From an uncultured Nitrososphaerota archaeon (GTDB lineage Archaea; Thermoproteota; Nitrososphaeria; Nitrososphaerales; Gagatemarchaeaceae), in the NCBI GenBank assembly GCA_963718895.1, contig CAVRAG010000004.1, positions 224,001 through 288,000 of the forward strand: a stretch of 64,000 bases of DNA, in the 5' to 3' direction. Under the pieces are notes generated by a model. It saw only the letters and a program-made list of their open reading frames with translations, did not search any database and was not told the DNA's origin. The translations under genes and the position numbers were made by a program. Within the stretch, counting starts at the first letter, position 1. Every line of letters starts with the position of its first letter. Below are positions 34,348 through 60,870 of this stretch, one piece after another.

Positions 34348-34538
34348 CCGCTGACCAGTCGGCATAGTCAAGGCGTTAATCGACAGAGGATTTCAAGCAG
34401 GTAGATGCTGCGCACAGGATTCATCACTCATCCGGGGACTCATCCAGGTACGTCGGTTGTGATAGGATGTCAAGGCGGGAATTCCAGTTGCTCTCCGGGC
34501 TTTTACGTGCGAACCGCGTCGGACCCCGAGGCCCTCTC
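34304..34538 (+). repeat. rpl10e 3' end plus first array repeat (copy A)
   Basis: Directly repeated at 38386..38618; ends CTTTTACGTGCGAACCGCGTCGGACCCCGAGGCC. Confidence 0.85.
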
Positions 34539-34675
34539 TCGTCCCACCTCCGTCCCGCGCGACGCTACCAAGAGGCGACTCTGGAACTTCGGCAAGGCAG
34601 AGAGTGTTCCTCTATTCCTACATGAGTTGCCCCGAATAATCTTGGGTTGACGGCTGCCTTCGGAGGTTAGTCTAT

Positions 34676-36289
34676 CTAATCTCTCCTTATCGCCATGTAC
34701 AGGAAACAGGCGAGGGGAACGAGTATCCATAAGACCGCCGCTGCAACGATGGTGGGGATAGTTATCCCGTAAGCTTGGGGCACTATGGAAAAGCTCTGTC
34801 CGGCTAGAACCGGAAGCCCAACGGAAGATATTGTTCCAGTGAGGTATGTGCCTACGAGGCTCACGAATGCAGCGGGATTCACAAACTCCAAACTCACAGA
34901 GAGCTGGTAGAACCCCACAGAGCCGCTCTGAATCCCCAGTACTGACGTAACTAGAGTGGCAATCACGCCTTGGAAGAAGTCGATTACCAGGAACAGTCCC
35001 ACGCCTATTCCAATCAGCGAACCCGAAGACCTCACGAGATGCGAGAGAAGCATCATTGTCCCGATGAAGGCAGCTAGCTCCACCAGAAGACCCGCGGTTG
35101 ACGATATCAGAATCGAAGCATCGATGAACAACCCAGAGAAATGTTGGGCGATTAGGTCCAGCGCGGCCACCGAGGCGAGCGTGGCCACGGATATCCCGGC
35201 GAAGCTCGAGACGTACCTGGAAAGAGACAGTCCCCTTCGCGTGACGGGTTGGGCGAGCACGGACTCGAGGACTCCTGAAACGCGGTCCTTGCCGTATACG
35301 CTGTACACCGTGACTATCGTCAAGAGAGGGATGAAGAGACCGAAGAAGGTCTCGAAGAACGAGACGGCGACCTGATTGTTCAGCGCCCTCGTGAGCGCCG
35401 AATCAGGATACACCTGTCCAAGCGGCAAGTTAGAGGTTGACGTGGCGACGCTCGTGCCGTTCGGATACGCTAGACCTATTGCAACTATGTCGCCGGAAGC
35501 AGCAATAGTTGCTGGAGCTTCAGAGAGATTCCCAGTCAGTTGAGGAGAGGGGAGGACCTGGACGTAGGACCTCATCGTGCCGAGAAGCTGGGCGTTCGAC
35601 TGGTTCAGCTCGGCTGGAATAAGGGTCTCGGCTTGTACGCCTCCGCAGTCCTGCACGAACGCCCCGTTCTGGCACGGGGTCCCGCTGAGGAATCGGTAAT
35701 AGACGAGGTACCCGCTTGGTGAAGAGCCATTGAAACCGGCCCAGGACACCAGAATGTCCCTGGATGATGTATTCGTGAGGCCCGTGACGGTCGCGGGCGT
35801 GGCAGGCGATTGGTAACGGGTCGTGTGGAACACCGAGACGGTCTGACCGGGAGGGGTACTGCTTGAGAATGGCGCGTAATCACCACTAACTATGACGGAA
35901 GAACCGGAGGCCGTCACGACCACGCCGACTGAGTAGCTATTGCTCTCTGGAACGGCTATCGTGAACTGGGTCGAGCCGCTCGAGTTGGTGACCGCTGACC
36001 CAGATACTGTACGGGGCGGAACGGCTGGGATGGTCACGTTCAAGTCGAACTTCACCCCCGCCGCGGGTTGGCCGAACTCGGTCCACGCGAGTGCGATGAA
36101 GTGATATCCGCTCGAGTTATAGTAGACAAAGATCTGGCTGGTGTTGTTGTTGTTCGGGGGGATGGCGTTCGCGGAGAAGCTCCCAAAGGCTGCGAGGCTC
36201 AGGAGCACCATCGCAGCCATCGCAATCAGGACGGACTTGCTGGTCAGAGTCCTTCTAGTGTCGTAGAGGAACGGGCCCAGCATGCTCAC
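34676..36289 (-). CDS. ABC-2 permease with large extracellular domain
   Basis: N-terminal TM; YGKDRVSGVLESVLAQPVTRR; ends RRD. Confidence 0.85.
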   Translation of the reverse strand: MSMLGPFLYDTRRTLTSKSVLIAMAAMVLLSLAAFGSFSANAIPPNNNNTSQIFVYYNSSGYHFIALAWTEFGQPAAGVKFDLNVTIPAVPPRTVSGSAVTNSSGSTQFTIAVPESNSYSVGVVVTASGSSVIVSGDYAPFSSSTPPGQTVSVFHTTRYQSPATPATVTGLTNTSSRDILVSWAGFNGSSPSGYLVYYRFLSGTPCQNGAFVQDCGGVQAETLIPAELNQSNAQLLGTMRSYVQVLPSPQLTGNLSEAPATIAASGDIVAIGLAYPNGTSVATSTSNLPLGQVYPDSALTRALNNQVAVSFFETFFGLFIPLLTIVTVYSVYGKDRVSGVLESVLAQPVTRRGLSLSRYVSSFAGISVATLASVAALDLIAQHFSGLFIDASILISSTAGLLVELAAFIGTMMLLSHLVRSSGSLIGIGVGLFLVIDFFQGVIATLVTSVLGIQSGSVGFYQLSVSLEFVNPAAFVSLVGTYLTGTISSVGLPVLAGQSFSIVPQAYGITIPTIVAAAVLWILVPLACFLYMAIRRD

Positions 36290-37227
36290 TTCGCCTGCTC
36301 CGGACCACTCGACGCGCCGACCAGCCTGAAGAAGTACTCCTCAAGGTCGGATTTCTGGACCGAGAACTCCCGGAGGAGGTACCCCTTCTTCATCAGCTCA
36401 GCGCTCACTTCCGAGGGATCGGCCTCAAACCCGGAGAGAACGATGCTGGACTCGCTCTCGACGCTGACCGTACCGAGAGTGCGAAGGTAGTCCAAGCCGC
36501 TCTCGTTTAGGTTCGGAATCGTCATTCGCAGGACGCCGTTGCCGCGCTCTATGGCGGCCAGCTCGCCTCTCGTGAGAGTCTTGATTACCTTCCCCCTGTG
36601 GATGAAGATGATTCTGTCGGAGACGGCTTCGATCTCGGAGAGTATGTGAGAGGAGAGGAGGACGGACTTGCTCTGCTTCCTCAGGTCCGTCAGGAGGGCA
36701 CGGACAGACCTTATGCCCTGTGGATCCAGCCCGTTCAGCAACTCATCGAAAAGAAGGTCCTTCGGTTCAGGAAGCAGAGCTAGCGCGAGGGAGAAACGCT
36801 TCTTCATCCCCTGTGAGTAGTCTCGGAGACGTTCCCTTTCGTGTCCCGAAAGCTCGAGGAGCTGGAAGAGCTCTTTGGCTCTTCTTTCGGCGGCGTCTCT
36901 TTCGATCCGGCGGAAACCCGCAAAGTAGAGTAGCAGACTCTCAGCCTTGGCGTTCTGCTCATAGTTCGGAAACTCCGGTACCCAGCCAATCTGCTCGGAG
37001 GCTTTGCGCTTGTCCGCGACTATGTCGTGGCCGTCAATCGTGACCGCTCCCGACGTGGGGAGAGACACGCCGCTCGCGACTCTGATGGTCGTCGTCTTGC
37101 CTGCCCCGTTCAGTCCGACGAAACCCACCACCTCGCCATCTTCCACCGAGAACGATACGTCGTCCAACGCGGAGACTTTCGTCTCCCCCCTCCCGTAGTG
37201 CTTTGTCAGATTCGCGACCCTTATCAT
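36286..37227 (-). CDS. ABC transporter ATP-binding protein
   Basis: GLNGAGKTT, YSQGMKKR, LLFDE, SSH. Confidence 0.95.
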   Translation of the reverse strand: MIRVANLTKHYGRGETKVSALDDVSFSVEDGEVVGFVGLNGAGKTTTIRVASGVSLPTSGAVTIDGHDIVADKRKASEQIGWVPEFPNYEQNAKAESLLLYFAGFRRIERDAAERRAKELFQLLELSGHERERLRDYSQGMKKRFSLALALLPEPKDLLFDELLNGLDPQGIRSVRALLTDLRKQSKSVLLSSHILSEIEAVSDRIIFIHRGKVIKTLTRGELAAIERGNGVLRMTIPNLNESGLDYLRTLGTVSVESESSIVLSGFEADPSEVSAELMKKGYLLREFSVQKSDLEEYFFRLVGASSGPEQAK

Positions 37228-37531
37228 AGGAAAGAGATCGCCTGGTCGAACCGGTGATTTCCTCCGGGTGGCCTAGAAAGCGAGAATTTCGCTAGGATAG
37301 GATCGAGAGTTACAGCCACCGAATGAAGTCCTGTCGGTGAGGTCTGGTCAAGCCCGAGGTGGATTCTCGATCGATGGCGGCGCGGGCAGGGCATGGAAGA
37401 GAGGAAGCCCATTCAAGCGATAATATACTCTGTTTAACGTAAGGACGTACTTTCGATACACCAGATTCATAACAGAGGTCTCGGGCATGAGGATGGCCTC
37501 GCGGTCTGAATAACGCTATTATAGTCGCTGG

Positions 37532-38179
37532 GTGGAGTTTTCGAGTGTGCCAGAACAACGAGCCGGAATAGCTTACCAGACGCGATTGGCCGTCGTTCTA
37601 TCAGCCTTCTTGCTCATTTCTTCTGGCTTCGTGCCCGCGATTTCAGCGAGCAGCGAGTCCGTCCTGACCGGCGTTCAACCAGGGAGCTTCCTGCTCATCT
37701 TGTTCAGCTTGCTCGATCCTTTCATGACAGTGACCTCCACGCACCCTGCTCCGGGGGTTGAGGGGGTCGCGGTTCAGCAGGAACCGACCTCGAGCGAGGT
37801 CCAGTCGGAAAGCCCGGCTGCCTCGACTCCAACTTACTCTTCTCCCTCCTCCACAACGTTGCCGTTGGCAGTGGTCCCACGCCTTTGGACCGACTCCGCA
37901 AGAAAGCGGTCGAGATTCCAGATATACATCGAGATACTCGAGTTGCTGAGGCGCGGCCCTCTGACTCCATTCGAAGTAGCATTCTATGCGAGACTGAATC
38001 ACAAGAAGGCAAAGGAATACCTCAAGTTCCTAGAAGAGAAGGGATACATCGAATTGGTCGACGAAGATGGCAGAAGGATGTGGGTTCTTTCAACGAGCGG
38101 GGGAAGCATCGTTGAGAAGGTGAGGGCCATCTACGGGTTGTTCGAGAGCGATTTCCCGACCAGAAGAGCCTACACGTAG
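37532..38179 (+). CDS. Membrane-tethered wHTH (HTH_45-like) protein
   Basis: Two N-terminal hydrophobic segments, S/P/T linker, KRSRFQIYIEIL..ARLNHKKAKEYL. Confidence 0.7.
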   Translation: MEFSSVPEQRAGIAYQTRLAVVLSAFLLISSGFVPAISASSESVLTGVQPGSFLLILFSLLDPFMTVTSTHPAPGVEGVAVQQEPTSSEVQSESPAASTPTYSSPSSTTLPLAVVPRLWTDSARKRSRFQIYIEILELLRRGPLTPFEVAFYARLNHKKAKEYLKFLEEKGYIELVDEDGRRMWVLSTSGGSIVEKVRAIYGLFESDFPTRRAYT

Positions 38180-38385
38180 GTCGAGCAGATTATTCATTAT
38201 ATCAGATTCTTTTCGGATGGGACGGTGTGATAGATATTAGGGCTAATGCTTCGCAAATCGCCTTGACCGCATCGGAGGATTCCATCGTCTCATTGGTGAC
38301 CTCAATCCAGCGGATGTTGCGCCTGTAACAAGAAATTTCACCCTTGATTGGTCGTGAATAGAGCTTTCCCACCTGATATATCTAC

Positions 38386-38618
38386 TCGTGGCCGTAGAGA
38401 TCCCGAAGGCCCCCACACCCGCTGCTTAGCCCCTGCCCGGTCGCCCCAACATCTCAGCCGCTCATCGGCAGGGGATTTCAAGTAGGTGGATTGCTGCGCA
38501 CAGGGCTCATCGCGCATCCGGTGACTCATTCCGATACGTCGGTGGTGATAGAATGTCAAGGTAGGTATTCCGATTGCTTTCCGGCTTTTACGTGCGAACC
38601 GAGCCAGGCCCCGAGGCC
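38386..38618 (+). repeat. Duplicated rpl10e 3' end plus array repeat (copy B)
   Basis: GCCGTAGAGATCCCGAAGGCCCCCACACCCGCTGCTTAG followed by a diverged copy of the rpl10e downstream region. Confidence 0.85.
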
Positions 38619-38707
38619 GAAGCTATTGTGAATCGAGTCTGACGCTCGCTAGCCCGCTCATGAAGAAGGATAGTTCCGTGTAGCCAACGACGCGGAAGCG
38701 CTCGATT

Positions 38708-39115
38708 CTAGCCCACCATCAGAAAGTCGTTCGCTGTCAATATTCTGGTTCCGTCGACCTTCCCAAGAGAGAGCAGGTGTTCATCGCCAGAAACTATGAA
38801 GTCTGCTTTTGCAGCCACAGCGCTCTCCAGAATCACGTTGTCTGCTGGATCTTCCTTGACAACATCCAGTCTTGCGGGAGTATCGACGAAAATCGCGATG
38901 GCTGACACAAGAGCCTTGAATCTCGATTTCTGTTCTTCCTCGAATTCGAACTTTGGATAGTCGAGCACTCTCGAGAGCTCATCGAACTGAGCCTGGGAGA
39001 TGAAGAGCTCAATATCCCCGCTGACTATCTGCGCCAGTATCTTGTGCGGCTTCCCGTTCCACCCTAGGGCAGAGATGAGTATGTTTGTGTCGAGGACTAC
39101 TTTGCTCTTGCCCAC
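38708..39115 (-). CDS. vapC: PIN-domain toxin
   Basis: VVLDTNILISAL, DPADNVILESA, IVSGDEHLL. Confidence 0.9.
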   Translation of the reverse strand: MGKSKVVLDTNILISALGWNGKPHKILAQIVSGDIELFISQAQFDELSRVLDYPKFEFEEEQKSRFKALVSAIAIFVDTPARLDVVKEDPADNVILESAVAAKADFIVSGDEHLLSLGKVDGTRILTANDFLMVG

Positions 39116-39357
39116 TTGACGGCCTCGTCGATGTCATCCTGCTTAACCTTGCGTTTCTTCATGTGAGACTGGATGTCTCTGGAGAGAGACTCGAACTCGA
39201 TCTTGACCTTTGGTATGTCTACTCGCTTGAACAGCACACCATCCTTTACCTCTATGGCCACGAATCTGTCGCTGCTGGTGAAGCCTTCGTTCTCTCTTAT
39301 TCGACGAGGGACCACTAATTGCCCCTTGCCTGACATCTTGACCAGTGGCTCCTCCAC
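39097..39357 (-). CDS. vapB: AbrB/MazE-type antitoxin
   Basis: KMSGKGQLVVPRRIRE; overlaps the toxin; GTTGAAC direct repeats in its promoter. Confidence 0.85.
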   Translation of the reverse strand: MEEPLVKMSGKGQLVVPRRIRENEGFTSSDRFVAIEVKDGVLFKRVDIPKVKIEFESLSRDIQSHMKKRKVKQDDIDEAVKWARAK

Positions 39358-39464
39358 CTTGACCGACTCCCATTGAGTCGTTGAACAGTTGAACTATTTA
39401 ACCGTTCGACCCAATCGGGCGCTACTCTTTCCTGCTCCTGCGAGCCGACGCATCGTCCGGTGAA

Positions 39465-39690
39465 CTCCCGGCTTCCTACGTGCGAACCGCGCCAGGGCCT
39501 CGAGGCCCTCTCCCCCGTCCGAGCTACGTCTTGTCTTAGATGCGGAATGGGCCTGAAGCCGTGCAAAGGGTTCATTGAGCCTCCGCCGGTCCACTTTATC
39601 CAGGTTCGTCAGCTATTGTAAGTGAGCCGGGGTGGGTATTCCAATTGCTCTCCGGGCTTCTACTTGCGAACCGCGCCGGGCCCCGAGGCC
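39465..39690 (+). repeat. Array repeat copy C: full unit of about 185 bp bounded by two cores
   Basis: GCGAACCGCGCC cores at about 39482 and 39666. Confidence 0.9.
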
Positions 39691-39707
39691 GCTCGAATCG
39701 ACCGCTT

Positions 39708-40898
39708 TCACGGACTTAGGGCGAACGAGGTGGCGTTTACCATGAAGCAGTAGGCGTACGGAGACGCCGTGTCGTCGGGCACGTTGAACATGCAGTTGGC
39801 GCTCGCCGGCTCTCCTTGCTGGCCGACGTATGGGTACCTCACAGTTATGGTGTAGCTCGTAGCGCTCCACGGCCCTGAGGAGGGGACTTGGGCGGTGCAG
39901 CCAGAGGCCGTGGCGGCTTGAGCGGCGCAGTTGAAGATGAACGCCTGGGAGAACCCGGAGGTCACGCACGGAACGGGATTGTTGTTCTCGGCACACCCTC
40001 CACCGTTGTCCAGGAAGCTCCCCACCGTCGGCAGGTTGCCGGACCGGACGACCGAGAAGTGCAGCAGGGTCACCTGGCCCAATTCGTCGCCGGCGACCAG
40101 AGTGTAGCTCGCGGGCAGGGCTGAGTGGAGCGAGTTGTAGAAGCCGGTGCCGTTCGCGGCGTAGATGGAGTCCTGGAAGGAAATCCGCGTTGTGAAGGTC
40201 CCCTTGGCGAGGGTCTCCGGGGTCTGGGTGTACGTGCACACCCCCGAGTTGCACACGGGCGGCGGAGGGGTGCCTGGGACGTCGTAGTAGCCGGCGTAGG
40301 TCCCGTTGTCGCTGCCCGGGAGCAGCGAGTAGCTTGTGATGTTGTGCAGGCCGTAGGATTGGTTGCCGATGAACACGAGATCGACCAGGCATTCGACCGT
40401 GGCCCACACAAACAGCGGCTTGCCCGCCGCGGAGATGTTGTTCAGCCCATAGGTCCCCGTAAAGACGCCTACGCCGACTGGATAGTACAGCTTGTTGGTG
40501 GCGTCGCCCAGGTCGCATGGTCCTGCGGACAGACCATCGATCGCCCAGGCGCTTGAGGCGGTCAGATTGTTCGCCGTCGGCAATGTGTTCAGGATTGAGG
40601 CGGTGATATCGATGGCGTCCTGGCTCGGTATCGTCGTCGCGTTGACCGACAGCGTCAGTTTCAGGCCCAACGACGAATTTGCCGTTTCCGCGCTGGCCGT
40701 GACCATCTCGGCGCCTTGGGAGGATGAGGCGGTGGTAGCCCCCGAAGAAGATGTGGAGCTCGAAGCGCTCGTATCGCTCGAGGTCGCGGACTGAGAGGAG
40801 AGTACAGCATATGTGATTCCGGCCAAGGCAGCCATTGCGACGATGACCACGGTCGCGAGGGTGGCTGTCGTCCCGATGGCGCTTCGCCGACTCACCAA
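39708..40898 (-). CDS. Pilin-signal-like surface protein (DEWG-domain family)
   Basis: MVSRRSAIG plus TM, S/T linker, YTLVAGDELGQVTLLHFSV, Cys-rich C-terminus; motif at 40934. Confidence 0.65.
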   Translation of the reverse strand: MVSRRSAIGTTATLATVVIVAMAALAGITYAVLSSQSATSSDTSASSSTSSSGATTASSSQGAEMVTASAETANSSLGLKLTLSVNATTIPSQDAIDITASILNTLPTANNLTASSAWAIDGLSAGPCDLGDATNKLYYPVGVGVFTGTYGLNNISAAGKPLFVWATVECLVDLVFIGNQSYGLHNITSYSLLPGSDNGTYAGYYDVPGTPPPPVCNSGVCTYTQTPETLAKGTFTTRISFQDSIYAANGTGFYNSLHSALPASYTLVAGDELGQVTLLHFSVVRSGNLPTVGSFLDNGGGCAENNNPVPCVTSGFSQAFIFNCAAQAATASGCTAQVPSSGPWSATSYTITVRYPYVGQQGEPASANCMFNVPDDTASPYAYCFMVNATSFALSP

Positions 40899-41004
40899 AC
40901 ATAGGTCACGCGATTCGCGAAGAGGCTCCCCTCGTGATTAATAGTTTTGTCCGAGTACACCCGAAGTCCCGGTCTTGGGCGGCTACTCATCGATGTTTAA
41001 ATAG

Positions 41005-42212: not shown

Positions 42213-42299
42213 GGCACCAAAGGACCTGACTGCGAAGTTACTGAATCGTGATTAATAGTTATGTCCGAACACCGAGGGAAAGGAAAATCTGTTCTTTCG

Positions 42300-42436
42300 T
42301 CGGCTTTTACGTGCGAACCGCACCAGGTCCCGAGGCCGGAGCCAAGGCGCACTTCTTTCACAGCCCAACGTGTGGATGAAATGGCCCGGCGGAGGCGCGA
42401 TGAACCCTAGACGTGGCACGCCTTGGGCATTCTCGA
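42300..42436. repeat. Array repeat core (copy D, +) followed by an inverted internal fragment (about 42372-42436, -)
   Basis: CGGCTTTTACGTGCGAACCGCACCAGGTCCCGAGGCC; GGATGAAATGGCCCGGCGGAGGCGCGATGAACCCT is the reverse complement of the unit's middle. Confidence 0.8.
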
Positions 42437-44660: not shown

Positions 44661-44826
44661 TTATATCCTCCGCGAGAACAAGATGATCGCCACCGCAGGC
44701 GCAGACAGGCTCCAGGAGGGGATGAGGAAGGCCTTCGGCAAGCCTATAGGTCTGGCCGCCCGTGTGGACATCGGCTCCACGATACTCGAGCTCCAGGTCA
44801 AGACGGCGGACCTCCAGCTGGGCAAT
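44661..44826 (+). pseudogene. Internal fragment of a second rpl10e allele
   Basis: [53 protein letters not shown] is identical in protein to about 34095-34255, with synonymous DNA differences. Confidence 0.9.
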
Positions 44827-45513: not shown

Positions 45514-45550
45514 ACCGGACGACCCGAAGACGGCACCCAAGTACAGAGGT

Positions 45551-47155
45551 TCATTGCGTCTCCGCCGTGATCAGAACGTTGACTGGGTCTTCCCGGGTTC
45601 GTTTAGCACTCGATGGGTCAGTCAGCTCGCGAGATGGGAGAACGCGACCTACCAGATCATTGAGCAGGTTCGTGTCTCTGAGTATGATCTGCGCCGTCTG
45701 GATTCCTGAGACGAGGACGCCGTACACGCCGCCCCCTGGCTGGGTCCAGTGGCCAGAAAGGTAGAGACCACGTATCGGTGTCTCGTGGGGCATCCTGCCC
45801 AGTCCCACTTGAGCGGGGGTAGGCTCCCAGCCATAGATTGCACCTGACAGGTTCAGGGTGTACCGTTCCATGGTCCTCGGCGAAGCACCCTCGGCGAAGA
45901 GTGTGTGTTCGTGCAGTCCTGGGAAGAGCGTCTCCAGCTCTTTCACTATCAGCGCTGAATATCGTGCTTTCTTCTCTCTCCAGGAGCCCTCAATCTCGTA
46001 GGGGATCAGCGAGGTGGCTATGATGATGTGCTCGCCGGGGGGAGCCAGAGATGGGTCGATGAGGGTCGGAATGTCCACTCCCAGCATTGCGGGAGTCCCG
46101 TCCTGAATCATCCTGTACGTCTCATCGTGGTCCCACGTCTTGTAGAGAAACGTCTCGTGCGACGCTCCGAGCTTCCTCAGGTCGAGGTCGGTCGCAAGGA
46201 AGAGCACGAAAGCGGAGACGGATGGCGTCATGCTGTGAATCTTGCTAACGAAGCGTGTTGGGAGTTCATTTACGCCGACGAGTTCTTCGAACGTCTGCAC
46301 GGGGTCTGCGTTCGAGATCACCAGTTCGGCCTCTATCCGCTGGCCGTTCTCCAGGACGATCCCATTTACGGCTCCCTCGTGAACGATTATCCTCCTCACG
46401 CTGCTCAACAACATCACCTCGCCCTTGCACCTCCTGATGGCCTCCACCAAGGCGTTCGCGAGGTTCTGGAAGGTCCCCCGGCAGTAGAACGCGCCCCCGT
46501 CCATGAAGCTCATGAACATGGCGGACCAGTACAGGAACGAGATCTTCGAGGGAGGGAGGCCGAGGTAGGGCCACAGAGTCGCGAAGAGCGCCTTGGCCTT
46601 CGGGTCGGCCAGGTGCTCGTCCATCACCTGCTGCAGCGTCGCGTTGCGATACTTGTACAGGACCGGCAAGTTGCTCGGCGTCCGGAGCAGGTCGAAGATG
46701 GATGGCTTGGAGGGGAACCTCCGGACCTCCTCGTCAATCTGGGCGCAGAGCTCGAGGAGCTTCAAGAAACCTCCCTCCTCTTCGGGGAACTGGACCGCAA
46801 GGGCCCGGACGAACTCCTCCTCTCCCGTCGGGACGTCGACCCTGACCCCTGGGAAGATGGCGGTGTAGAACGGAGAAGCCCGGAGGAACTCGCAGAGTTC
46901 CCTGACCCCGAGCGTGCTGAGAAGGTTGTCGACAAGACCGCCCTCGCATCCGCCCGTGAGATGTACCGCCGCATCGAAGTGGTACCTCTTCAGCTGGAAT
47001 GACTGGGCATACCCTCCGGCACGGTCGTGCCTCTCTATCACGAGGACCTTCTTTCCGTTCTTGGCGAGCAGGGCCGCAGCCGTGAGCCCGCCGATTCCGC
47101 TGCCAATGACGATGACGTCGTATCTCTGCTCGCGCGATTCCCTTAGTATGGTCAT
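45551..47155 (-). CDS. Phytoene desaturase-like FAD-dependent oxidoreductase
   Basis: YDVIVIGSGIGGL..E..GGY, SPRTMERYT..GAIYG, GLYLSGHWTQPGGGV. Confidence 0.9.
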   Translation of the reverse strand: MTILRESREQRYDVIVIGSGIGGLTAAALLAKNGKKVLVIERHDRAGGYAQSFQLKRYHFDAAVHLTGGCEGGLVDNLLSTLGVRELCEFLRASPFYTAIFPGVRVDVPTGEEEFVRALAVQFPEEEGGFLKLLELCAQIDEEVRRFPSKPSIFDLLRTPSNLPVLYKYRNATLQQVMDEHLADPKAKALFATLWPYLGLPPSKISFLYWSAMFMSFMDGGAFYCRGTFQNLANALVEAIRRCKGEVMLLSSVRRIIVHEGAVNGIVLENGQRIEAELVISNADPVQTFEELVGVNELPTRFVSKIHSMTPSVSAFVLFLATDLDLRKLGASHETFLYKTWDHDETYRMIQDGTPAMLGVDIPTLIDPSLAPPGEHIIIATSLIPYEIEGSWREKKARYSALIVKELETLFPGLHEHTLFAEGASPRTMERYTLNLSGAIYGWEPTPAQVGLGRMPHETPIRGLYLSGHWTQPGGGVYGVLVSGIQTAQIILRDTNLLNDLVGRVLPSRELTDPSSAKRTREDPVNVLITAETQ

Positions 47156-48049: not shown

Positions 48050-48099
48050 CCTCCTTGTCTGGCAAGCCTAGTACCAGCGCGAGACCAAAAGATAATCCC

Positions 48100-48222
48100 G
48101 GGTTCATTGAGCCTCCGCCGGTCCACCCTATCCAGGTTCGTCAGCTATTGTAGGTGAGCTGAGGTGGGTATTCCATCTGCTCTCCGCGCTTCTACGTGCG
48201 AACCGCGCCGGGCCCCGAGGCC
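48100..48222 (+). repeat. Array repeat copy E
   Basis: Near-identical to 39568-39690. Confidence 0.9.
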
Positions 48223-48321
48223 GAAACCTCGACCTTGGCAGTGCGCTACCTCCTTTCTCCCAGTTCACACTCCGTCCCGACCGTGGAAGTATGCGATTTG
48301 AATGCCGCTCAATCCAAACAC

Positions 48322-48753
48322 CTAGTCTGCGATCTTCGGACTAAACTTCCGAGGATCCACCCTCGTGAGTCCTGGCACCCTGTCGTATACTTCGTCTGTG
48401 GACAGGATCGTCCTGTCCGAATCCTGATTCAGCGCAGTCGCCGCGTAAATCGCATCGAAGAGGCCTGTGACCTTGAACGACTTCATGATGGATTGTGCCG
48501 CCAGCAGGACCTCTGCCGTAACCGGAAGGATGGAGAGACCATCGATCCCCGCGATTTCGGCCTGCTTGCCAAGCACCGCCGCCTTATCGAATCCGAAATC
48601 CTCCAAGACATAATAGAGTTCGATGAGCACGGCCGCTGAGGTGTTCAGCTTCAGCTTGTTCCGTCGCAGCGATTCGAAGATGGGGTCGGCGTACTGCTTC
48701 AACCAGTCGGTCTTCTTCGAGTACGCCACGAAGAGGTCCGATTCGATGATCAT
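48322..48753 (-). CDS. vapC: PIN-domain toxin
   Basis: IIESDLFVAY, FDAIYAATAL, STDEVYD. Confidence 0.85.
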   Translation of the reverse strand: MIIESDLFVAYSKKTDWLKQYADPIFESLRRNKLKLNTSAAVLIELYYVLEDFGFDKAAVLGKQAEIAGIDGLSILPVTAEVLLAAQSIMKSFKVTGLFDAIYAATALNQDSDRTILSTDEVYDRVPGLTRVDPRKFSPKIAD

Positions 48754-48983
48754 CTCTGTCGTCGCCTCGTTGCGCGCGCTCTGACCTCTTCGGCAAGCTT
48801 TCTCTCCGCCCGCTCCTTGGCCGACTTTCCTGTCACCTTCGTGTCCGACTCAACCGGCGCTCTCGCTATCGGAATCACCATGTACGAGTCGCCCATGTGG
48901 ATTACCAGCGCCCTGTCTGCCTCTATCCGCATCTCCTTCGGGATGGTGACCCGTCCACGTGCGTCAATCTCGACTACCGACAT
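48750..48983 (-). CDS. vapB: AbrB-type antitoxin
   Basis: MSVVEIDARGRVTIPKEMR; ATGA overlap with the toxin. Confidence 0.85.
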   Translation of the reverse strand: MSVVEIDARGRVTIPKEMRIEADRALVIHMGDSYMVIPIARAPVESDTKVTGKSAKERAERKLAEEVRARATRRRQR

Positions 48984-49152
48984 TAGCCCAAAAACGGGGA
49001 CTGCGCCCATATTTATCATTTGTGGGTAGAAATGAACTATTGCCCACGGAGCGATTTTTGGACCGGGGATCTCCGCCTGACCAGCCACGGCCAGCATGAA
49101 AGTTAGCCCATCCAGCAATCCCAACTCGGTCTGAGGGCTCTTGTTCAATGAG

Positions 49153-49275
49153 CTCCGGGCTTTTGCGTGCGAACCGCGTTAGGCCCCGAGGCCTCTCCAT
49201 CCGTCCGAGCTGCGTCTTGTCCTGGATGCGGAAGAGGCCTGAAGCCATGAATAGGGTTCATTGCGCCTCAGCCGG
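49153..49275 (+). repeat. Array repeat copy F
   Basis: Matches 39465-39590. Confidence 0.9.
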
Positions 49276-49283
49276 AGCATGCC

Positions 49284-50436: not shown

Positions 50437-50480
50437 CTGTGATTGATAGTTATGTCCGAATCAGATGGGTTCGTCGTCGG

Positions 50481-54248: not shown

Positions 54249-54317
54249 GGCAACTCGGCTGGTTAGAGTGCGATTGGTGATTAATAGTTTTGTCCGAACG
54301 CCGAAGAGGAAAGATTG

Positions 54318-54459
54318 ATTGTTTCCCCAGCTTTTGGGGGCGAACCACGCCGGGGCGCCGGGGCCCTCTCCCTCCGTCCGAGCTGGGTCTTGTTCTAGAT
54401 GCGGAAGAGACCTGAAGCCATGCAAAGGGGTCATTGCGCCTCCGCCGGTGCACTTCATC
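54318..54459 (+). repeat. Array repeat copy G
   Basis: Matches 39465-39600. Confidence 0.85.
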
Positions 54460-54497
54460 AGCGCGTTGTTCTACGCTCAGCGGCGGCCAATCAGCCT

Positions 54498-54722
54498 CTA
54501 GAGCAAATCGATGAATTGTTCCGTGGTGAGTCCTGAATCCTTGATGATTGCTCTGAGCGTACCCTTTGCGATTTCTTTGTGGTTTGGGATGGTTAGACGG
54601 CGATGAGGCGCTTCCTTGTGCCTCAGAATCATGTGGCTCCCGGTCTGATGGTCGAGTGAATATCCGGCCTTCGAGAGGGCCTTCACGACTTCCCTTCCTG
54701 AGACTACGGGAAGCTTAGGCAC
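54498..54722 (-). CDS. hicA: HicA toxin
   Basis: SGREVVKAL..GSHMIL..IPNHKEIAKGTLRAII. Confidence 0.92.
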   Translation of the reverse strand: MPKLPVVSGREVVKALSKAGYSLDHQTGSHMILRHKEAPHRRLTIPNHKEIAKGTLRAIIKDSGLTTEQFIDLL

Positions 54723-54927
54723 TGACCTCTACCACTTCCTCGTCTATTGAGGGTGGTATGGGCTCGCGGTGCTTCTTCAGACTTGCGAGATAACCGTTGA
54801 TGGCGTCCTTGATGTTCGCCAGCGCGTCGGCCCTCGTCGCTCCCTGAGAAACGCACCCCGGTAACGACGGACACCTGGCTACGAAGACTCCGTCCTCGTC
54901 CTGTTCGATGGTTACCCGGTACTTCAT
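54715..54927 (-). CDS. hicB: HicB antitoxin
   Basis: IEQDEDGVFVARCPSLPGCVSQGAT..ALANIKDAI. Confidence 0.92.
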   Translation of the reverse strand: MKYRVTIEQDEDGVFVARCPSLPGCVSQGATRADALANIKDAINGYLASLKKHREPIPPSIDEEVVEVSA

Positions 54928-55004
54928 GTTCTAGAATTCCAGACTGGCGGGTTAAAATCCTTTGGTCTGCTGGTGCACTTCTCACTGTGATGCGCGTGAG
55001 AGCA

Positions 55005-55123
55005 GTTCATCCTGACTTCGTCGGGCACTTCATCCAGGTAAATCAGCTATGGCAGGAGGGCCGAGGTGGGTACTCCAATTGCTCTCCGGCTTTTACGTGC
55101 GAACCCCGCCGCGCCCCGATGCC
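55005..55123 (+). repeat. Array repeat copy H
   Basis: CATCCAGG..GGTGGGTACTCCAATTGCTCTCCGGCTTTTACGTGCGAACC. Confidence 0.85.
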
Positions 55124-55768: not shown

Positions 55769-55812
55769 TGATTGAGAGTTTTTTCCGAACCGCGTCAGGT
55801 CCCGAGGCCCTC
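55769..55812. repeat. Chimeric site: promoter motif joined to the array repeat tail at CGAAC (copy I)
   Basis: TGATTGAGAGTTTTTTCCGAAC (19/22 match to 54278-54299) followed by CGCGTCAGGTCCCGAGGCCCTC. Confidence 0.75.
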
Positions 55813-57053: not shown

Positions 57054-57157
57054 ACCGAAGCGCCTTGAGACGTCGCGCCCGACTTCGTGATTAATAGCTA
57101 TGCCTCAGTGATTGGAATCCAGAACATTCGTGGCGGCTTCTGGCAAAGGGAGGAGCG

Positions 57158-57409
57158 TCAATCGGTCACTGGTATTGGCGGGTTACATGTCATGTAGATG
57201 GACCCCTTCCAGAGGGAATCACCGAATCCAAGAGTAGCGCAACTGACCGAACTATAGATAGCATTTGAGGCACCGTTGCCCTTTGTGCTTGTAATGCAAC
57301 TACCGCCGCACGATTGACCAGTTTTCACCACTGGAGCGAGGGAGAAGACAAGTAGGGATACACCCACAATCCCGACGACCAAAACAACGGCTTTTGACTG
57401 GCGCTTCAT
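57158..57409 (-). CDS. Small membrane protein, distant variable-loop family member
   Basis: MKR+TM+PVV-CGGSC loop-SVSCATLGFG; motif at 57436. Confidence 0.55.
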   Translation of the reverse strand: MKRQSKAVVLVVGIVGVSLLVFSLAPVVKTGQSCGGSCITSTKGNGASNAIYSSVSCATLGFGDSLWKGSIYMTCNPPIPVTD

Positions 57410-57501
57410 GCCAAGAACCTCAGCCACCGGATTCTTGACTAATAGTCTTGTCCGAACTGGATTGGGTTTGAAGCATCTGGAGCTCATTGGGCCTAAACGC
57501 G

Positions 57502-58359
57502 TCAATTGACGCTAACGTAGAAGGTGATGAAGTCCGAGCCAGCATTCCATTCGATGCCGGCAGAAGGATCGGTCTGCTCTGTGAACCACACGCCCTTCGG
57601 CGGTTGGGTGTAAGCGATGTAGGCGAACCCGGTGAAATTCGTGTCCAGTGTCACCGTAAAGGGATTCCAGTATTCAACAGCCCGCGTCCCAGACGTGACG
57701 GCGATCTCGGGGAGCCCTATCAAGAATTGGTGCGTGTCATTTGAGTTCGGCAGTGGATAATGGGTCACGTTGGTTACGTTGTATTCCGTTATCGTTCCTG
57801 AATAATTCTGTCCCAGATTTGGGGATATCGCAGTGAAATTGACCCCTTCGAATACGATGGATCTGGCGTCGAACACGCTCTGCAGAGGCACGCTCAGGTG
57901 TCTGTATTCTACACCCTTGATGGTGACCGTATCAGACGAGATTTCGTGGGTTAGAGCCCCAATCTGCTCCTGCTGGTAGACGGCCACAGAACCGAGCACG
58001 ATCAGGACCACTAGCAGGCCGGCAAGCATGGCCTTCTGGTGCGACAGGTGGAGGGCGGGCCTCGCACTCGGGTGCCCCTCGTCCTGCTTTCTGCCTGCAT
58101 CGATTATCCGGAGAGCCTCCTTCCCTTCGTCAGTGACCGTGTACAGACCCTGGCCATTCAGCTTGACCAGCCCCGACAGCCTGCCCAGGTGGAACGAGAG
58201 GAGCCCGTTGCTCTCGAGCCCTACCGCGTGCTTGAGCTCCGAGAAGGGGAGCGGCCTTTCGCTTACAGCCTGAAGTATCCTGATTCTTGTGGGATGCCCG
58301 AGGGCCTCGAACACCTCAGCCCTCGATGAGTTGAACGATTCGTCGCCATTCCCTGACAC
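57502..58359 (-). CDS. ArsR-wHTH with TM helix and extracellular domain (membrane-tethered one-component regulator)
   Basis: EVFEALGHPTRIRIL..FSELK..LSFHL..YTVTDEG, single TM, beta-rich outer domain. Confidence 0.8.
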   Translation of the reverse strand: MSGNGDESFNSSRAEVFEALGHPTRIRILQAVSERPLPFSELKHAVGLESNGLLSFHLGRLSGLVKLNGQGLYTVTDEGKEALRIIDAGRKQDEGHPSARPALHLSHQKAMLAGLLVVLIVLGSVAVYQQEQIGALTHEISSDTVTIKGVEYRHLSVPLQSVFDARSIVFEGVNFTAISPNLGQNYSGTITEYNVTNVTHYPLPNSNDTHQFLIGLPEIAVTSGTRAVEYWNPFTVTLDTNFTGFAYIAYTQPPKGVWFTEQTDPSAGIEWNAGSDFITFYVSVN

Positions 58360-58511
58360 TTTGGCATGCGCTCCCGTAGCAGCAATGGGTGTGTCGTGAT
58401 TTAATGCCTCGTTCGTTGACCTGCCGAATCTTCCGATTATTGCAGGACAACGTTTCTTGACCCTCGTCTGGACTGGATGTTCTGTTGTGGTCGACTCTCC
58501 GGTTCGCCCAG

Positions 58512-58811
58512 TCAAGACCCCGACCGCAGCCGAGACAGCTTCAGGCTTCCCACGTGGTCGACAATCCATCGGACGATTCCGTCGTAGGCCTCTGAACCCG
58601 ACCGGGTGAGCTGCACCTGGCCGTCCGCGTCGAGTCTGACGAACCCCTTCTCCGTCATCCAGTCCATGTACCTGACGAGGCGGTCGTACGAGAGCCCCGT
58701 CGCCGCCGCGAGCGCTGTCCTGTTCATCGCTCCCTTCTCTTTCAGGGTCTTGACGATGCGAGCGAAGACGTACAGGTCAGGCCTTGTTGAACTCGGCCCT
58801 CTTGAACTCAG
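58512..58811 (-). CDS. wHTH (HTH_45-like) protein
   Basis: RPDLYVFARIV..NRTALAAATGLSYDRLVRYMDWM; open frame extends to CTG 58811. Confidence 0.7.
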   Translation of the reverse strand: MSSRGPSSTRPDLYVFARIVKTLKEKGAMNRTALAAATGLSYDRLVRYMDWMTEKGFVRLDADGQVQLTRSGSEAYDGIVRWIVDHVGSLKLSRLRSGS

Positions 58812-59469
58812 AGTAGAATCCCCTCAGGTCCCAGAACAGAAGATCGAGCGAGCGCAACCGGTTGAAGCCCGTCTCGAGGCTCTTCTTGCTGAATATCAGG
58901 ACAATTATGATGGATGCCGGGACGAGAAACTCCAGGACTGCGGGAACCCAGTACATCAGCCCTGCGAATTCGGCGATGACTGAGAGTAAGAAGTAGGTCA
59001 CGAGTGAGTAGCCGGCGACCTTGAGGATAGAGTAGAACAGGTACGCGATTCTCGAGGTGCTGACCATGCCCAGCTGCGACTCCCAGTCCAGCTCGGAGAG
59101 AAGTTTGACGGCTCCCGGGACGCCCTCCTCCATGGTCTTCTTCCATTCGCCCATCTTGGTCCGGCTAACCCTCCGGTCGACCCAGAGTATACCTCCGAGG
59201 AAGCCTCCCAGGACGATGATGCCGACCGCGAGGGAGGCGAAATTGCTCGACGGGATTCCGCTGAACGAGAAGTTCGCGCCGTTGACGGGAAATCCGGAAG
59301 TCACCTCGTACACGCCATCGAAGAATACAATGAGGATCGAGGCGATAATTGTGACCACCAAGATTGCCAGGAAGTCGAGCATCGCATAGGCGAGCTCCCT
59401 GTACTTCCGTACGTCGTCGAGGGCCCGCATGAGGTCGCTGACCTGCTCGACCACCTCCGCTTCGCTCAT
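58777..59469 (-). CDS. Four-TM membrane protein
   Basis: Hydrophobic helices; operonic overlaps with both neighbours. Confidence 0.65.
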   Translation of the reverse strand: MSEAEVVEQVSDLMRALDDVRKYRELAYAMLDFLAILVVTIIASILIVFFDGVYEVTSGFPVNGANFSFSGIPSSNFASLAVGIIVLGGFLGGILWVDRRVSRTKMGEWKKTMEEGVPGAVKLLSELDWESQLGMVSTSRIAYLFYSILKVAGYSLVTYFLLSVIAEFAGLMYWVPAVLEFLVPASIIIVLIFSKKSLETGFNRLRSLDLLFWDLRGFYSEFKRAEFNKA

Positions 59470-59957
59470 AGGGACACGCCCAGCACGCGGACCGAGACCA
59501 TGGCAGCCCCGTTAATCACGAGGTAGAATACGTGAATCCCTTTGATGGGGACCGGAATGGCGTTGAACGTCAGGAAGTCCGTGGCGTTCTGTCCGGTGAG
59601 GACCGACGCGTCGAGCGGATGATTCCCGTAGACGGAGTATCCTTCGCCGCTCGTGCCGACGTCCTCGAACGTATAGTAGATGGTGTTGGGCAGGACGATG
59701 GACTCGCTCCGGGTGACCCCCTGGATGGTCGTGCTCGTCCCGTTCGGGAAGGTCACTGACGCCGACTGGTTCACCCCGTCAGGCTGGATTGTTATCAGGA
59801 CGCGCGCATAGACGTAGTCTTCCTTGGCAATCACGAGGACCGAGGTTCCAGAGTTCCCTGTCTGATAGAAAGAAGGTTGTGGGCTCTGGAACAACGATAG
59901 TGTGGGCGCGACCAACACGAGAATCAGAACCAGGACCAGGAGCCATCTGACTCTCAT
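59466..59957 (-). CDS. Secreted or membrane-anchored protein
   Basis: N-terminal signal helix; first gene of a three-gene operon. Confidence 0.6.
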   Translation of the reverse strand: MRVRWLLVLVLILVLVAPTLSLFQSPQPSFYQTGNSGTSVLVIAKEDYVYARVLITIQPDGVNQSASVTFPNGTSTTIQGVTRSESIVLPNTIYYTFEDVGTSGEGYSVYGNHPLDASVLTGQNATDFLTFNAIPVPIKGIHVFYLVINGAAMVSVRVLGVSL

Positions 59958-60028
59958 AAATCGCAGCGCCTCTCGAGTCTATTTAAGGCGGACTCACTCG
60001 GAGAGAGTCCCCAGGCGCTCGTTGGTCT

Positions 60029-60178
60029 GAGATGCCGAAGAATGGGAGTGCCACGTATTGGGTTCGTTGCGCCTCCGCCGGTCCACCCTATCCAGGTTCG
60101 TCAGCTACTGTGAGTGAGCCGTGGTGGGGGTTCCAATTGCTCTCCGGGTTTCTGCGTGCGAACCGCGCCGGGGCCCTC
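60029..60178 (+). repeat. Array repeat copy J
   Basis: GGGTTCGTTGCGCCTCCGCCGGTCCACCCTATCCAGGTTCGTCAGCTA...GTGCGAACCGCGCCGGGGCC. Confidence 0.9.
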
Positions 60179-60319
60179 TTGCTACCCAGAAGAAGTTGGC
60201 AGATCTCTCTGGGAATGATTGCGAGACCCAGCTCTCCCTTAAATACGTGAAGGTGCTCTCCGACATCGTGGCGCTCATCCGCGAGTTGACTCTTCCTCGT
60301 AAAACGGTGGATTCAGAGC

Positions 60320-60712
60320 TTGGATGATGCCGTGCTCAAGCGGAGACTTGCATCGATGTTGAGGTTCGATCCTGCAATCAGGTATGTCATGTTAATCGGA
60401 GAGGACGACAAGCCTCTGTCTTCCGTCTCTAGAAGAAGCGATAAGTCGGCCCTCGAGCCTCCTGGACAGGGGAACCTAGTGCTCAGGCGGTTCGCGATCG
60501 CTCGGGGCATGGCGTCGACATCTGATTCATTTTACGGCCCAGCGCGCTTCGTCATACTACTGCGAGAGAAACTGATCGAGATAGTCTACCTGTCAGCCGC
60601 GAATATGATTCTAGTGGGGGCTGACCCTGATTTCCCCCTCGAGAAGGTCAAGCGACTTGCCAAGGTCTTGGACAAGGTTCAAATCAGGAGTCGGGCAACT
60701 CCGAAGTCTTGA
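60320..60712 (+). CDS. Roadblock/profilin-like small protein (DUF6659-like)
   Basis: DPAIRYVMLI..FYGPARFVILLREKL. Confidence 0.55.
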   Translation: MDDAVLKRRLASMLRFDPAIRYVMLIGEDDKPLSSVSRRSDKSALEPPGQGNLVLRRFAIARGMASTSDSFYGPARFVILLREKLIEIVYLSAANMILVGADPDFPLEKVKRLAKVLDKVQIRSRATPKS

Positions 60713-60751
60713 CTGGGACGCGTAGTCGCCCCGCTTCGTCTGCCGCGAACA

Positions 60752-60870
60752 GGGTCTATCGCGCCACCGCCAAGCCACCCATCCAGATACATCGGCTTTG
60801 GCAAGAGGATGTTGGAGGGACGGTTCCATCTCTCTCGGGTCTTACGTGTGAACCGCGCCGAGGCCCTCTC
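60752..60870 (+). repeat. Degenerate array repeat copy K (distal)
   Basis: ATCCAGATAC...CTCGGGTCTTACGTGTGAACCGCGCCGAGGCCCTCTC. Confidence 0.7.

Follow-up and report, generated by a model that had tools for sequence, protein, structure and literature searches.

Repeats resembling ribosomal gene flanks as putative junction sites of integron-like cassette arrays in a genus of Nitrososphaerota

Integrons are the classic example of a system that stockpiles and shuffles genes, and their attC sites carry the consensus boxes RYYYAAC ... GTTRRRY. The integron sites and their enzyme have been taken to define this principle, and, to our knowledge, the archaeal examples so far use the same attC/IntI parts. 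Small modules without a recombinase of their own are found as pdif modules of Acinetobacter plasmids and other Xer-exploiting elements, in which short sites bound the module and the enzyme is encoded elsewhere. These sites are dif-like, with two inverted arms and alternating orientation, and the core sites of tyrosine recombinases usually show dyad symmetry. The available part of Ghaly et al. 2022 (PMC9668308) lists a genome of family UBA183 (class Nitrososphaeria) that lacks IntI and has 5 attCs, all on a single contig, and gives 12 on one contig as the longest archaeal array. Thaumarchaeal integrase-bearing elements, as presented in the accessible sections of Krupovic et al. 2019 (PMC6563490), integrate in tandem into tRNA or protein genes at their 3′ ends; they use a conserved gene, at its 3′ terminus or flank, as the target, leave a partial target duplication at the far end of the insert and form arrays by site reuse.

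Here, a repeat family is described from an uncultured Nitrososphaerota archaeon of the Gagatemarchaeaceae, together with related arrays in its genus. The window, i.e., the whole stretch of DNA that was analyzed, comprises 64,000 nt (GCA_963718895.1, contig CAVRAG010000004.1, positions 224,001–288,000, forward strand). Two short sites recur, a 24-nt motif (m21) and a 43-nt core. Like sedentary chromosomal integrons and CALINs (attC clusters without integrase), the arrays are long and one-directional, have one fixed end and hold one- or two-gene cassettes about 1 kb apart. Toxin-antitoxin pairs and unknown proteins are abundant, the same cassette occupies different positions across species, and the sites are more alike within a lineage than the cargo. 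Unlike in integrons, a conserved sequence of 24 or 43 nt serves as the site in place of a folded imperfect palindrome, R/L boxes and IntI are missing, the fixed end is formed by the 23S rRNA or L10e gene, at its 3′ terminus, where integrons have intI-attI, and many cassettes carry a promoter-like box of their own. With 81 sites on one contig, the longest array by far exceeds the archaeal maximum of 12 given in the available text of PMC9668308. The elements in the accessible sections of PMC6563490 share the 3′ target, its partial duplication and the reuse of the site, whereas the inserts here measure about 1 kb, lack an integrase and stand dozens in a row; neither the 23S processing stem nor the L10e flank was found as a target in those sections. 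The absence of an own recombinase and the short bounding sites are shared with pdif modules, but the sites here have no dyad symmetry and all point one way, and no Xer-type enzyme common to the array-bearing genomes was found. Finally, the m21 copy next to the 23S gene corresponds to the 3′ strand of archaeal bulge-helix-bulge pre-rRNA stems, as far as these are covered in the available portions of PMC7714728, PMC10351888 and bioRxiv 10.64898/2026.03.23.713588, while some 80 further copies lie between protein genes and have no partner strand. No description of cassette arrays behind 23S or L10e genes was found in the literature searched, including the accessible text of PMC10640624 and PMC6563490.

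Repeat units and their ribosomal anchors

A search of the window with a 34-nt core (≤3 mismatches) gave six matches, all on the plus strand, compared with 0/100 for shuffles. The repeat finder returned a family of 10 copies, to which the places at 42304 and 55785 were added. The repeat family is confirmed, well in excess of what chance would give, and the 12 plus-strand core places of the original prediction were recovered. The left 34 kb had been described as free of copies, and indeed BLAST of 39440–39720 against the window gave nothing left of 34404. The proximity of copies to minus-strand stop codons was likewise found, with ORF ends at 34676, 38708, 39708, 48322, 49284, 54498, 55135 and 55901 and distances of 9–143 nt. 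The copies differ by indels and therefore do not keep a fixed reading frame, which agrees with the earlier argument against coding. A coding reading (GGAGG, ATG, MNP...) was considered and rejected: 60 codons were reached in only 15 of 86 copies, ATG was often ACG and the 30–32 nt spacers were out of frame.

The family had been proposed as a single unit of about 185 bp. The family stands, but the unit is a compound of two short sites, and most copies in the window are halves, either m21, B and core or core, A and m21. The order in the one full unit (39464–39691) is core, A, m21, B, core. This unit, reported before as a cargo-free copy at 39465–39690, is present; it is read here as an empty compound site rather than an empty cassette. 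The features are as follows.

33865..34347, plus: ribosomal protein L10e gene, anchor of the window array (Pfam Ribosomal_L16/L10e, E 3e-23)
34404..34554, plus: first junction unit, with a decayed m21-like stretch, B, core (34491–34533) and the start of A (repeat finder, BLAST; alignment with the single G007 copy)
38386..38619, plus: duplicate of the L10e 3′ end (38386–38443) and downstream region, B, core (38576–38618) (repeat families D8–D10, 81–90% identical to 34304–34535)
38620..39463, minus: PIN cassette with PIN gene (38708–39115) and a core on either side (BLAST, Pfam)
39464..39691, plus: complete empty compound unit, with core (39464–39507), A (39508–39566), m21 (39567–39590), B (39591–39647) and core (39648–39690)
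40936..40956, plus: D4 box, a 21-mer that looks like a promoter on the minus strand, with more copies at 50441, 50995 and 57437
42250..42408, plus: D4 box (42250–42270), core (42295–42337) and one inverted m21 (42385–42408, minus)
45546..45569, plus: lone m21 site with 4 mismatches, at the stop of an amine oxidase gene
48099..48222, plus: m21, B and core, the left border of the second PIN cassette
48223..49150, minus: second PIN cassette with PIN gene (48322–48753), 132-aa ORF (48750–49148) and a core on either side (BLAST, Pfam)
49151..49276, plus: core, A and m21
54279..54449, plus: D4 box (54279–54299), core-like stretch (54322–54365), A and m21 (54426–54449)
54450..54987, minus: HicA cassette with HicA gene (54498–54722), inserted at the m21 of a compound unit (Pfam HicA, E 3e-20)
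54988..55123, plus: decayed m21, B and core, the right border of the HicA insert
55770..55810, plus: D4 box fused to the right half of a core at a common CCGAAC
60025..60182, plus: end of A, m21 (60059–60082), B and core (60140–60182)
60742..60873, plus: decayed m21 (60751–60774), B and core (60830–60873)

Since the usual order is D4, about 30 nt, core, the fusion at 55770..55810 is read as a deletion between two CCGAAC copies. A tRNA scan found none, and nothing relevant came from Rfam, which contains no attC family, in searches of the whole window at the gathering score and, with E values of up to 10, of the array and a single unit.

Outside the window, the family reaches as far as about C4:301 kb. 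Related copies occupy an array on contig C8 that spans 131 kb, about 4% of the genome. Scanning the genome and its relatives, as had been suggested, placed the copies in arrays behind two anchor genes and on one strand. In all five genomes with core matches, the home copy of the core lies 100–190 nt behind the L10e gene; G007 has this single core, whereas G000, G002 and G011 have arrays there. In the window, the L10e 3′ end and its flank are duplicated at 38386–38620 over about 230 nt with 82–90% identity. B and core could be aligned suggestively with the 23S 3′ end over about 45 nt, but neither the LSU models nor 16 other families of the order gave a match.

On C8, m21 was found at 81 sites (≤7 mismatches in 24) between C8:1437143 and 1567972, all on the plus strand and none on the minus strand. 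Neighboring sites lie a median of 1005 bp apart, and 76 of the 80 gaps are shorter than 4 kb. Such spacing below 4 kb in mostly one direction is that of an integron-like array. The 23S gene lies at C8:1568000–1572001 on the minus strand (Rfam), and the last m21 starts a few bases behind its 3′ end. Together with the adjoining A′, m21 pairs with the 23S 5′ leader at −82 kcal/mol, and the duplex at C8:1567972 consists of 10 bp, a 4-bp helix and 9 bp with small bulges between them. The home copy of m21 immediately follows the mature 23S end and forms the 3′ strand of the stem from which 23S rRNA is processed. Pairing of trailer and leader with a short central helix and bulges was found for the C8:1567972 copy only, and the complementary 5′ strand has one copy in the genome, the true 23S leader. 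This duplex may be a canonical 3-4-3 motif. A 23S-anchored array was present in all seven genus genomes checked, with the first m21 0–6 nt behind the end of the 23S model and 20–81 sites per array, none inverted.

At either edge of the 24-mer, conservation falls off steeply and reaches background within 2–3 nt, and many sites are alike only in the 24-mer. Positions 5 and 7, which vary most, belong to the stretch that forms the small bulge. Fragments of the 23S 3′ end of about 30–70 nt stand beside many m21 copies, and trailer pieces are variably present. The sites can be shown to be copied from the 3′ flanks of the two ribosomal genes. Decay of the sites with distance from the 23S gene was not significant (rho 0.17, p 0.12).

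Filled and empty sites and the sharing of cassettes

The window holds one empty and three filled units, and in each filled unit the site is duplicated on both sides of the insert. The PIN cassettes sit between two cores at 38493–39590 and 48100–49275. The HicA cassette (538 bp) lies within the unit 54322–55123, of which positions 115–161, including m21, are repeated on both sides. The 93-aa ORF upstream of HicA (54704–54985) and the 132-aa ORF of the second PIN cassette have no Pfam family and are read, by position only, as HicB and an antitoxin gene, respectively. A larger insert of 4.1 kb, with an ABC transporter and an HTH gene, is closed by the unit at 38386..38619.

Cassettes bounded by these sites are shared between species. 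The HicA cassette was also found in the 23S-linked arrays of G007 and G021, with 73–75% identity and its left border at m21. The coding part of 48223–49150 recurs at 70–73% identity in two other species; there, the match is limited to that part, and a search of about 1.5 kb around it gave none of the known sites. Among five 23S-linked arrays, 39 matches of at least 300 nt were obtained, and 53 of 156 ends fell within −15 to +30 nt of an m21 start, compared with 3.1% for random positions. Seven inter-array matches have m21 at both ends in both genomes, and the cassette order is not collinear. The shared cassettes, rich in PIN and HicA toxin-antitoxin genes, occupy different array positions across species, and their homology ends inside m21; for cassettes duplicated within an array, the switch from shared to unshared sequence lies inside m21 as well. 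Crossover mapping had two informative variants only, which placed the border between m21 positions 5 and 7. The match ends at m21 and the filled and empty units of the window mark the cassette as what is exchanged, with the site as its boundary.

A 60-kb part of the C8 array yielded 99 ORFs, of which 12 belong to PIN, 9 to other toxin-antitoxin families and 58 to no family. In 53 of 80 intervals of this array the longest ORF is on the minus strand, which is the direction of the rRNA operon.

Possible routes of cassette movement

With slightly more confidence than doubt, the repeats are read as attachment or junction sites that bound small, mobile cassettes of genes in an integron-like array specific to this lineage. 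Two site types would take part, the core with its home behind L10e and m21 with its home at the 23S processing stem. A cassette of 0.4–3 kb, usually with one or two genes opposite to the printed repeat strand, would enter as a circle with one site and recombine with a resident site, so that it becomes flanked by two site copies. Repeated insertions would stack cassettes downstream of the anchor gene, and the unit of about 185 bp would be a scaffold of alternating site types (core, A, m21, B, core), either of which may be occupied. Observed are the anatomy of the units, their anchoring, the filled and empty sites and the sharing of site-bounded cassettes; we infer that the intermediates are circles and that recombination is conservative and site-specific, with an enzyme whose gene lies elsewhere.

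Searches for such an enzyme gave no PF00589 match in or beside either array, no recombinase or transposase among the 99 C8 array ORFs and no own integrase in these or in 45 scanned window ORFs. The flanking direct repeats that copy the target 3′ end are as in integrase-bearing elements at gene 3′ ends, but an own integrase was not found. G010 (77% completeness) has no PF00589 match at all. G007, which is one contig, has a single one, and most genus genomes match only the first ∼35 residues of this protein, which is probably the integrase of an integrated element. A divergent family of ∼450 aa has nine matches in G000 and none in G007. PF00239 was found in G007 only, among five genomes searched, and the reverse transcriptase PF00078 in G000 and G007 only. 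The XerA model reached at best 100 bits against a cut-off of 220, the matching gene is absent from many carriers, and m21 and the core, read directly, show no dyad symmetry; a Xer/dif-type module, with a ∼28-bp site with inverted arms and a XerA-type enzyme in every carrier, was thus not found. Overall, no candidate recombinase common to the carriers emerged from PF00589, PF00239, PF00078, two protein queries and both array-end flanks in two genomes. In four public DNA runs (low-depth short contigs), no usable circle or deletion was seen; three joints had sides of 20–38 nt, and loose read ends at 42362–42407, 48188/48222 and 49244 correspond to sites in other contexts. The lack of an array-linked recombinase, of a dyad in m21, of circular or deleted forms in public reads and of a clear distance trend in site decay speaks against a site-specific reading.

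Movement by homologous recombination, with no dedicated enzyme, is possible, although we consider it rather unlikely. The repeats would be portable homology to the 23S and L10e 3′ flanks, through which circles or DNA of relatives integrate by Campbell-type single or double crossover. Unequal crossing-over would shuffle, duplicate and delete cassettes, and gene conversion from the selected 23S-adjacent copy would keep the motif uniform. In some cassettes the copied anchor flank is much longer than the site (23S end, 30–70 nt; L10e end, about 230 nt), a length that fits homologous recombination, as does the varying extent of the copies, with trailer pieces present or absent and the L10e end at 82–90% identity. 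A linked recombinase was not found in any genome, and strict direct orientation is expected of a repeat array that survives recombination. However, many sites share the 24-mer only, which is very short and unlike random crossovers in longer homology, and the borders of shared cassettes fall inside it.

A route at the RNA level appears improbable. The copies would be halves of the pre-23S bulge-helix-bulge signal, and cassettes would be defined or moved via RNA that the splicing endonuclease cuts and that is then rejoined, or the copies would process read-through transcripts. The conserved block coincides exactly with the 3′ strand of the processing stem, in which helices flank the 4-bp central helix, its most variable positions 5 and 7 lie in the small-bulge stretch, between them falls the border given by the two informative variants, and the longest ORF follows the operon direction in 53/80 C8 intervals. 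Against this, the genome has only one 23S leader strand, and therefore the array copies of m21 have no partner in cis. Furthermore, PF00078 was not found in G009, G018 or G021, the window array hangs on L10e without an rRNA operon and its genes oppose L10e, and no such RNA role is visible for the core.

The sites had been predicted to be like attC sites. For function this holds, with sites between cassettes of one to few genes, duplicated flanking sites and cassettes shared by species, but membership of the attC family is not supported. The RYYYAAC/GTTRRRY pair is absent from the unit ends, where three copies show TGCGAAC / GTTCGTC or a close variant and the remaining copies have different sequences, and the m21 block has AAC...AAC on one strand and no inverted pair. 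The imperfect hairpin can be drawn, but all 12 single-strand DNA folds of window units, on both strands, were no better than shuffles (z +0.22 to +2.47; 200 shuffles each); covariation, proposed as a check, was weak (4/19 pairs), and the C8 units have no common hairpin. The best score for an integron integrase was 33 bits with TIGR02249, against a cut-off of 265. Ordinary attC sites in a CALIN, as reported for archaea, would explain the equal array architecture and the toxin-antitoxin-rich content, and the UBA183 sites in the available part of Ghaly et al. 2022 (PMC9668308) might be of the same kind; without the R″/R′ consensus, better folds or IntI, and with sites that are copies of gene flanks, this is very improbable. 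A selfish short repeat (MITE, REP-like) or a decayed gene without a part in cassette movement can hardly account for the family, which has many copies with indel differences and a readable short ORF (MNP...), but shows no terminal inverted repeats on reading the copies, no short target duplications and no scattered copies, is restricted to one strand of arrays behind two anchor genes and gave nothing in Rfam.

A broader version of the junction-site reading is put forward tentatively, as a doubtful prospect. The arrays may represent a new gene-capture platform, with insertion at the splicing-endonuclease cut of pre-23S rRNA and a second site behind L10e, which would use an undescribed recombinase family or an RNA route and would be an independently arisen archaeal counterpart of the integron with ribosomal flanks as docking sites.

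Meaning for the genus

Across a genus of Nitrososphaerota from soil and peat, arrays that hold up to 81 cassettes combine integron-like architecture and cargo with unrelated sites from ribosomal flanks, and no integron enzyme. If the junction-site reading is true, cassette platforms would have evolved more than once and a new site-specific recombination system would await finding. It would also explain the exchange of accessory genes among these uncultured archaea, and the link to the rRNA processing stem raises the question whether rRNA maturation is tied to gene capture.

Compound repeat units in the window

According to the original prediction, a family of attC-like repeats lies at the 3' ends of cassette genes in the right part of the window. 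The predicted 34-nt core occurs six times with at most 3 mismatches, on the + strand throughout, and was found 0 times in 100 dinucleotide-preserving shuffles. Ten of the 12 proposed core places were grouped by a repeat finder (as a 44-nt version), and 42304 and 55785 come in addition. When 39440-39720 was used as BLAST query against the window, no copy was identified left of 34404. The minus-strand ORFs were present as well, with their stop codons 9-143 nt away from a repeat copy. Taken from the shuffles, the repeat finder, BLAST and the ORFs, the observation stands. The proposed unit of about 185 bp is indeed repeated, but the same BLAST query resolved it into a compound structure instead of a single unit.

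Repeat elements of the window (core, 43-nt site; A and B, segments between core and m21)
34404, 38493, 39555, 48100, 54988, 60025 and 60742: copies of the left part plus core
39465, 49149 and 54326: copies of the core plus right part
39464-39691: the only complete unit, in the order core, A, m21, B, core
m21: 24-nt motif AGGGTTCATTGCGCCTCCGCCGGG, central in the complete unit at 39464-39691
D4 box: GATTAATAGTTATGTCCGAAC, about 30 nt left of some cores

The 21-nt D4 box is nearly invariant, with window copies at 40936, 42250, 50441, 50995, 54279, 55770 and 57437. Genome-wide, 49 copies were counted. Along the reading direction of the cassette genes, an ORF of 60 codons or more is present within 200 nt downstream of every one of them (a raw count). 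The ORF starts 19-46 nt downstream of D4 in 30 of the 49 copies, most commonly at 30-35 nt. D4 looks like a promoter-like box, which may be a promoter or operator that the mobile genes bring with them in common. A 12-nt insertion, a local duplication, was observed at window position 34425 in a decayed m21-like stretch behind the L10e gene (one public contig).

The likeness to attC holds for the role of the repeats, which are unlike attC in structure and origin. The attC consensus box pair is RYYYAAC/GTTRRRY, and identity with attC is not supported, as the unit ends lack this pair. Nor was attC-like folding seen: when window units were folded as single-stranded DNA, z values ranged from +0.22 to +2.47 over 12 folds, none of them more stable than shuffled sequence. 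Of the hairpin that had been predicted, a consensus hairpin could be recovered, with compensatory changes in 4 of 19 pairs that come mainly from a single divergent copy. The best score for an integron integrase was 33 bits versus a cut-off of 265. For archaeal integrons, Ghaly et al. (2022, PMC9668308) give at most 12 attCs per contig, and they list one UBA183-family genome with 5 attCs on contig JACQFN010000023.1 and IntI absent; these five might be units of the present kind.

Anchoring of the arrays behind the 23S rRNA and L10e genes

In the host MAG (3.13 Mb, 11 contigs, 80.5% complete; the window is C4:224001-288000), a profile of the motif region identified 77 copies across the genome. 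On contig C8, between 1437143 and 1567972, m21 occurs 81 times on the + strand and 0 times on the - strand (at most 7 mismatches in 24). Neighbouring sites are a median of 1005 bp apart, and 53 of the 80 gaps have their longest ORF on the minus strand. On both sides of the 24-mer, conservation drops to background after a few bases. Starting from the ATG of m21, an ORF of 60 codons or more opens in just 15 of 86 copies; since the ORFs are mostly short and the ATG is often ACG, m21 was rejected as a gene start.

With Rfam, the single 23S rRNA gene was located downstream of the 16S gene, on the minus strand of C8 (1568000-1572001), and the last m21 site starts a few bases beyond the 23S 3' end. 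Together with the A' that follows it, m21 is complementary, in rRNA sense, to the 23S 5' leader. When leader and trailer were co-folded, a duplex of -82 kcal/mol was obtained, consisting of 10 bp, a 4-bp helix and 9 bp, with small bulges between. At the location of this duplex, archaeal pre-23S RNA carries a bulge-helix-bulge signal, as stated in three reports (PMC7714728, PMC10351888, bioRxiv 10.64898/2026.03.23.713588). The right part of many array repeats copies the final 30-70 nt of the 23S gene, and the leader strand has only one copy in the genome.

In the relatives G009, G010, G012, G018 and G021 the end of the 23S model is 0-6 nt from the first m21 site, which, with the source genome G000 and G007 of the same genus, amounts to 23S anchoring in 7 of 7 genomes checked. 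The 23S-linked arrays of these genomes hold 20-81 sites each, none of them inverted. To the right of the array, the rRNA operon and the sequence that follows it are syntenic between G000 and G007 at 80-93% identity, and the two arrays share almost none of their content. Ordinary metabolic and housekeeping genes adjoin the 23S array at either end. Within the 23S gene, a weak group I intron match was observed at L004:8445-8583 (a locus outside the window; E 0.016), and the 23S span of 3.7-6.2 kb among relatives suggests that 23S introns vary in number.

The core has its own anchor. The single-contig genome G007 contains one clear core and one weaker core-like match, and the clear core lies about 100 nt behind the L10e stop, oriented as in the window. 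All five genomes with core matches (G000, G001, G002, G007 and G011) have a core 100-190 nt behind L10e, and in G000, G002 and G011 additional cores are located farther downstream. In the sister species G002 (L011, G002:C10:24206-37399), each unit is a pair of cores separated by about 111 nt, and the spacer between them contains a central hairpin that varies; the changes in this hairpin are apparently compensatory, and the scaffold differs from that of the window. Inside the window array, 44674-44825 is a 152-nt internal L10e fragment, 95% identical to 34105-34256. Compared in translation with L10e of G007, the fragment is 88% identical and the resident gene 86%.

Of 22 other genomes of the genus, 19 contain the exact or near-exact 21-mer; it was also identified in one of two genomes from other genera of the family and in none of 16 from other families of the order. 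The sister genus (G024) is free of arrays. The exact motif is present in at least 157 public stretches, and more than 100 MAGs have it; the contigs are titled as Nitrososphaerota or Thaumarchaeota MAGs, including Candidatus Gagatemarchaeum stordalenia. It was also observed on the 5.6-kb contig DATLTI010000252.1 (L046), which is binned as an Acidimicrobiales bacterium and is probably a misbinned archaeal contig.

Cassettes as the probable mobile units and the search for a recombinase

The region 54322-55123 corresponds to the unit of 39464-39691 with a 538-bp HicA cassette inserted at m21 (54450-54987), and unit positions 115-161 are found on either side of the insert. The PIN cassettes 38620-39463 and 48223-49150 each lie between two cores, in the arrangement B-core-cassette-core-A. 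In duplicated cassettes of C8, the change from shared to unshared sequence falls inside m21. Among five 23S-linked arrays, 39 shared stretches of at least 300 nt were counted. For 53 of the 156 stretch ends, the distance from an m21 start is between -15 and +30 nt, versus 3.1% of random positions, and in seven stretches m21 forms both borders in each of the two genomes compared. The order of the common cassettes differs between species. G007 and G021 also have the HicA cassette of the window in their 23S arrays, with m21 as left border, from which it follows that cassettes pass between the two array types. A crossover switch may tentatively be placed between m21 positions 5 and 7, from two informative variants that are too thin to rely on.

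The window cargo includes four PIN genes, one HicA gene, an ABC transporter pair, HTH regulators, an amine oxidase and a CAAX protease. In 60 kb of the C8 array with 99 ORFs, 12 PIN genes and 9 of other toxin-antitoxin families were identified, 58 ORFs had no Pfam family, and none was a recombinase or transposase.

PF00589 gave four matches in G000, none of them in or beside the arrays, one in G007 and none in G010. L002:3879-5213 (G000:C8:1338882-1340213) encodes a tyrosine recombinase of 444 aa whose C-terminal part is a zinc ribbon. Most genomes of the genus match no more than the first ~35 residues of this protein (in G000 at C8:406249), which may indicate an element that had inserted at the beginning of a host gene. 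For the G007 match, too, most genomes of the genus match no more than the first ~35 residues, and it may likewise belong to an integrated element. A divergent tyrosine-recombinase family of ~450 aa had nine matches in G000, most of them missed by PF00589, and none in G007. Two such genes lie back to back at G000:C8:1190962-1193692 (L001:10962-13692), and a lone unit (D4, A', m21) is present 2 kb from this pair. Among five genomes searched, a serine recombinase was found only in G007, and reverse transcriptase only in G000 and G007. Two RVT_1 reverse-transcriptase genes, with frames of 607 and 623 aa, are located at G000:C8:1204372-1208734 in a region rich in D4 boxes, and are probably of the group II intron type.

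As no catalyst was found for the arrays, homologous recombination is kept as a serious, if rather unlikely, rival account of how the cassettes move, and a route through RNA as a remote one. Literature searches, and term look-ups in papers on the lineage and on mobile elements of thaumarchaea, found no description of a cassette platform docked at 23S and L10e. The repeats are best read as the sites at which cassettes join a genus-wide platform, which is docked at the 3' end of the 23S rRNA gene and at that of the L10e gene.
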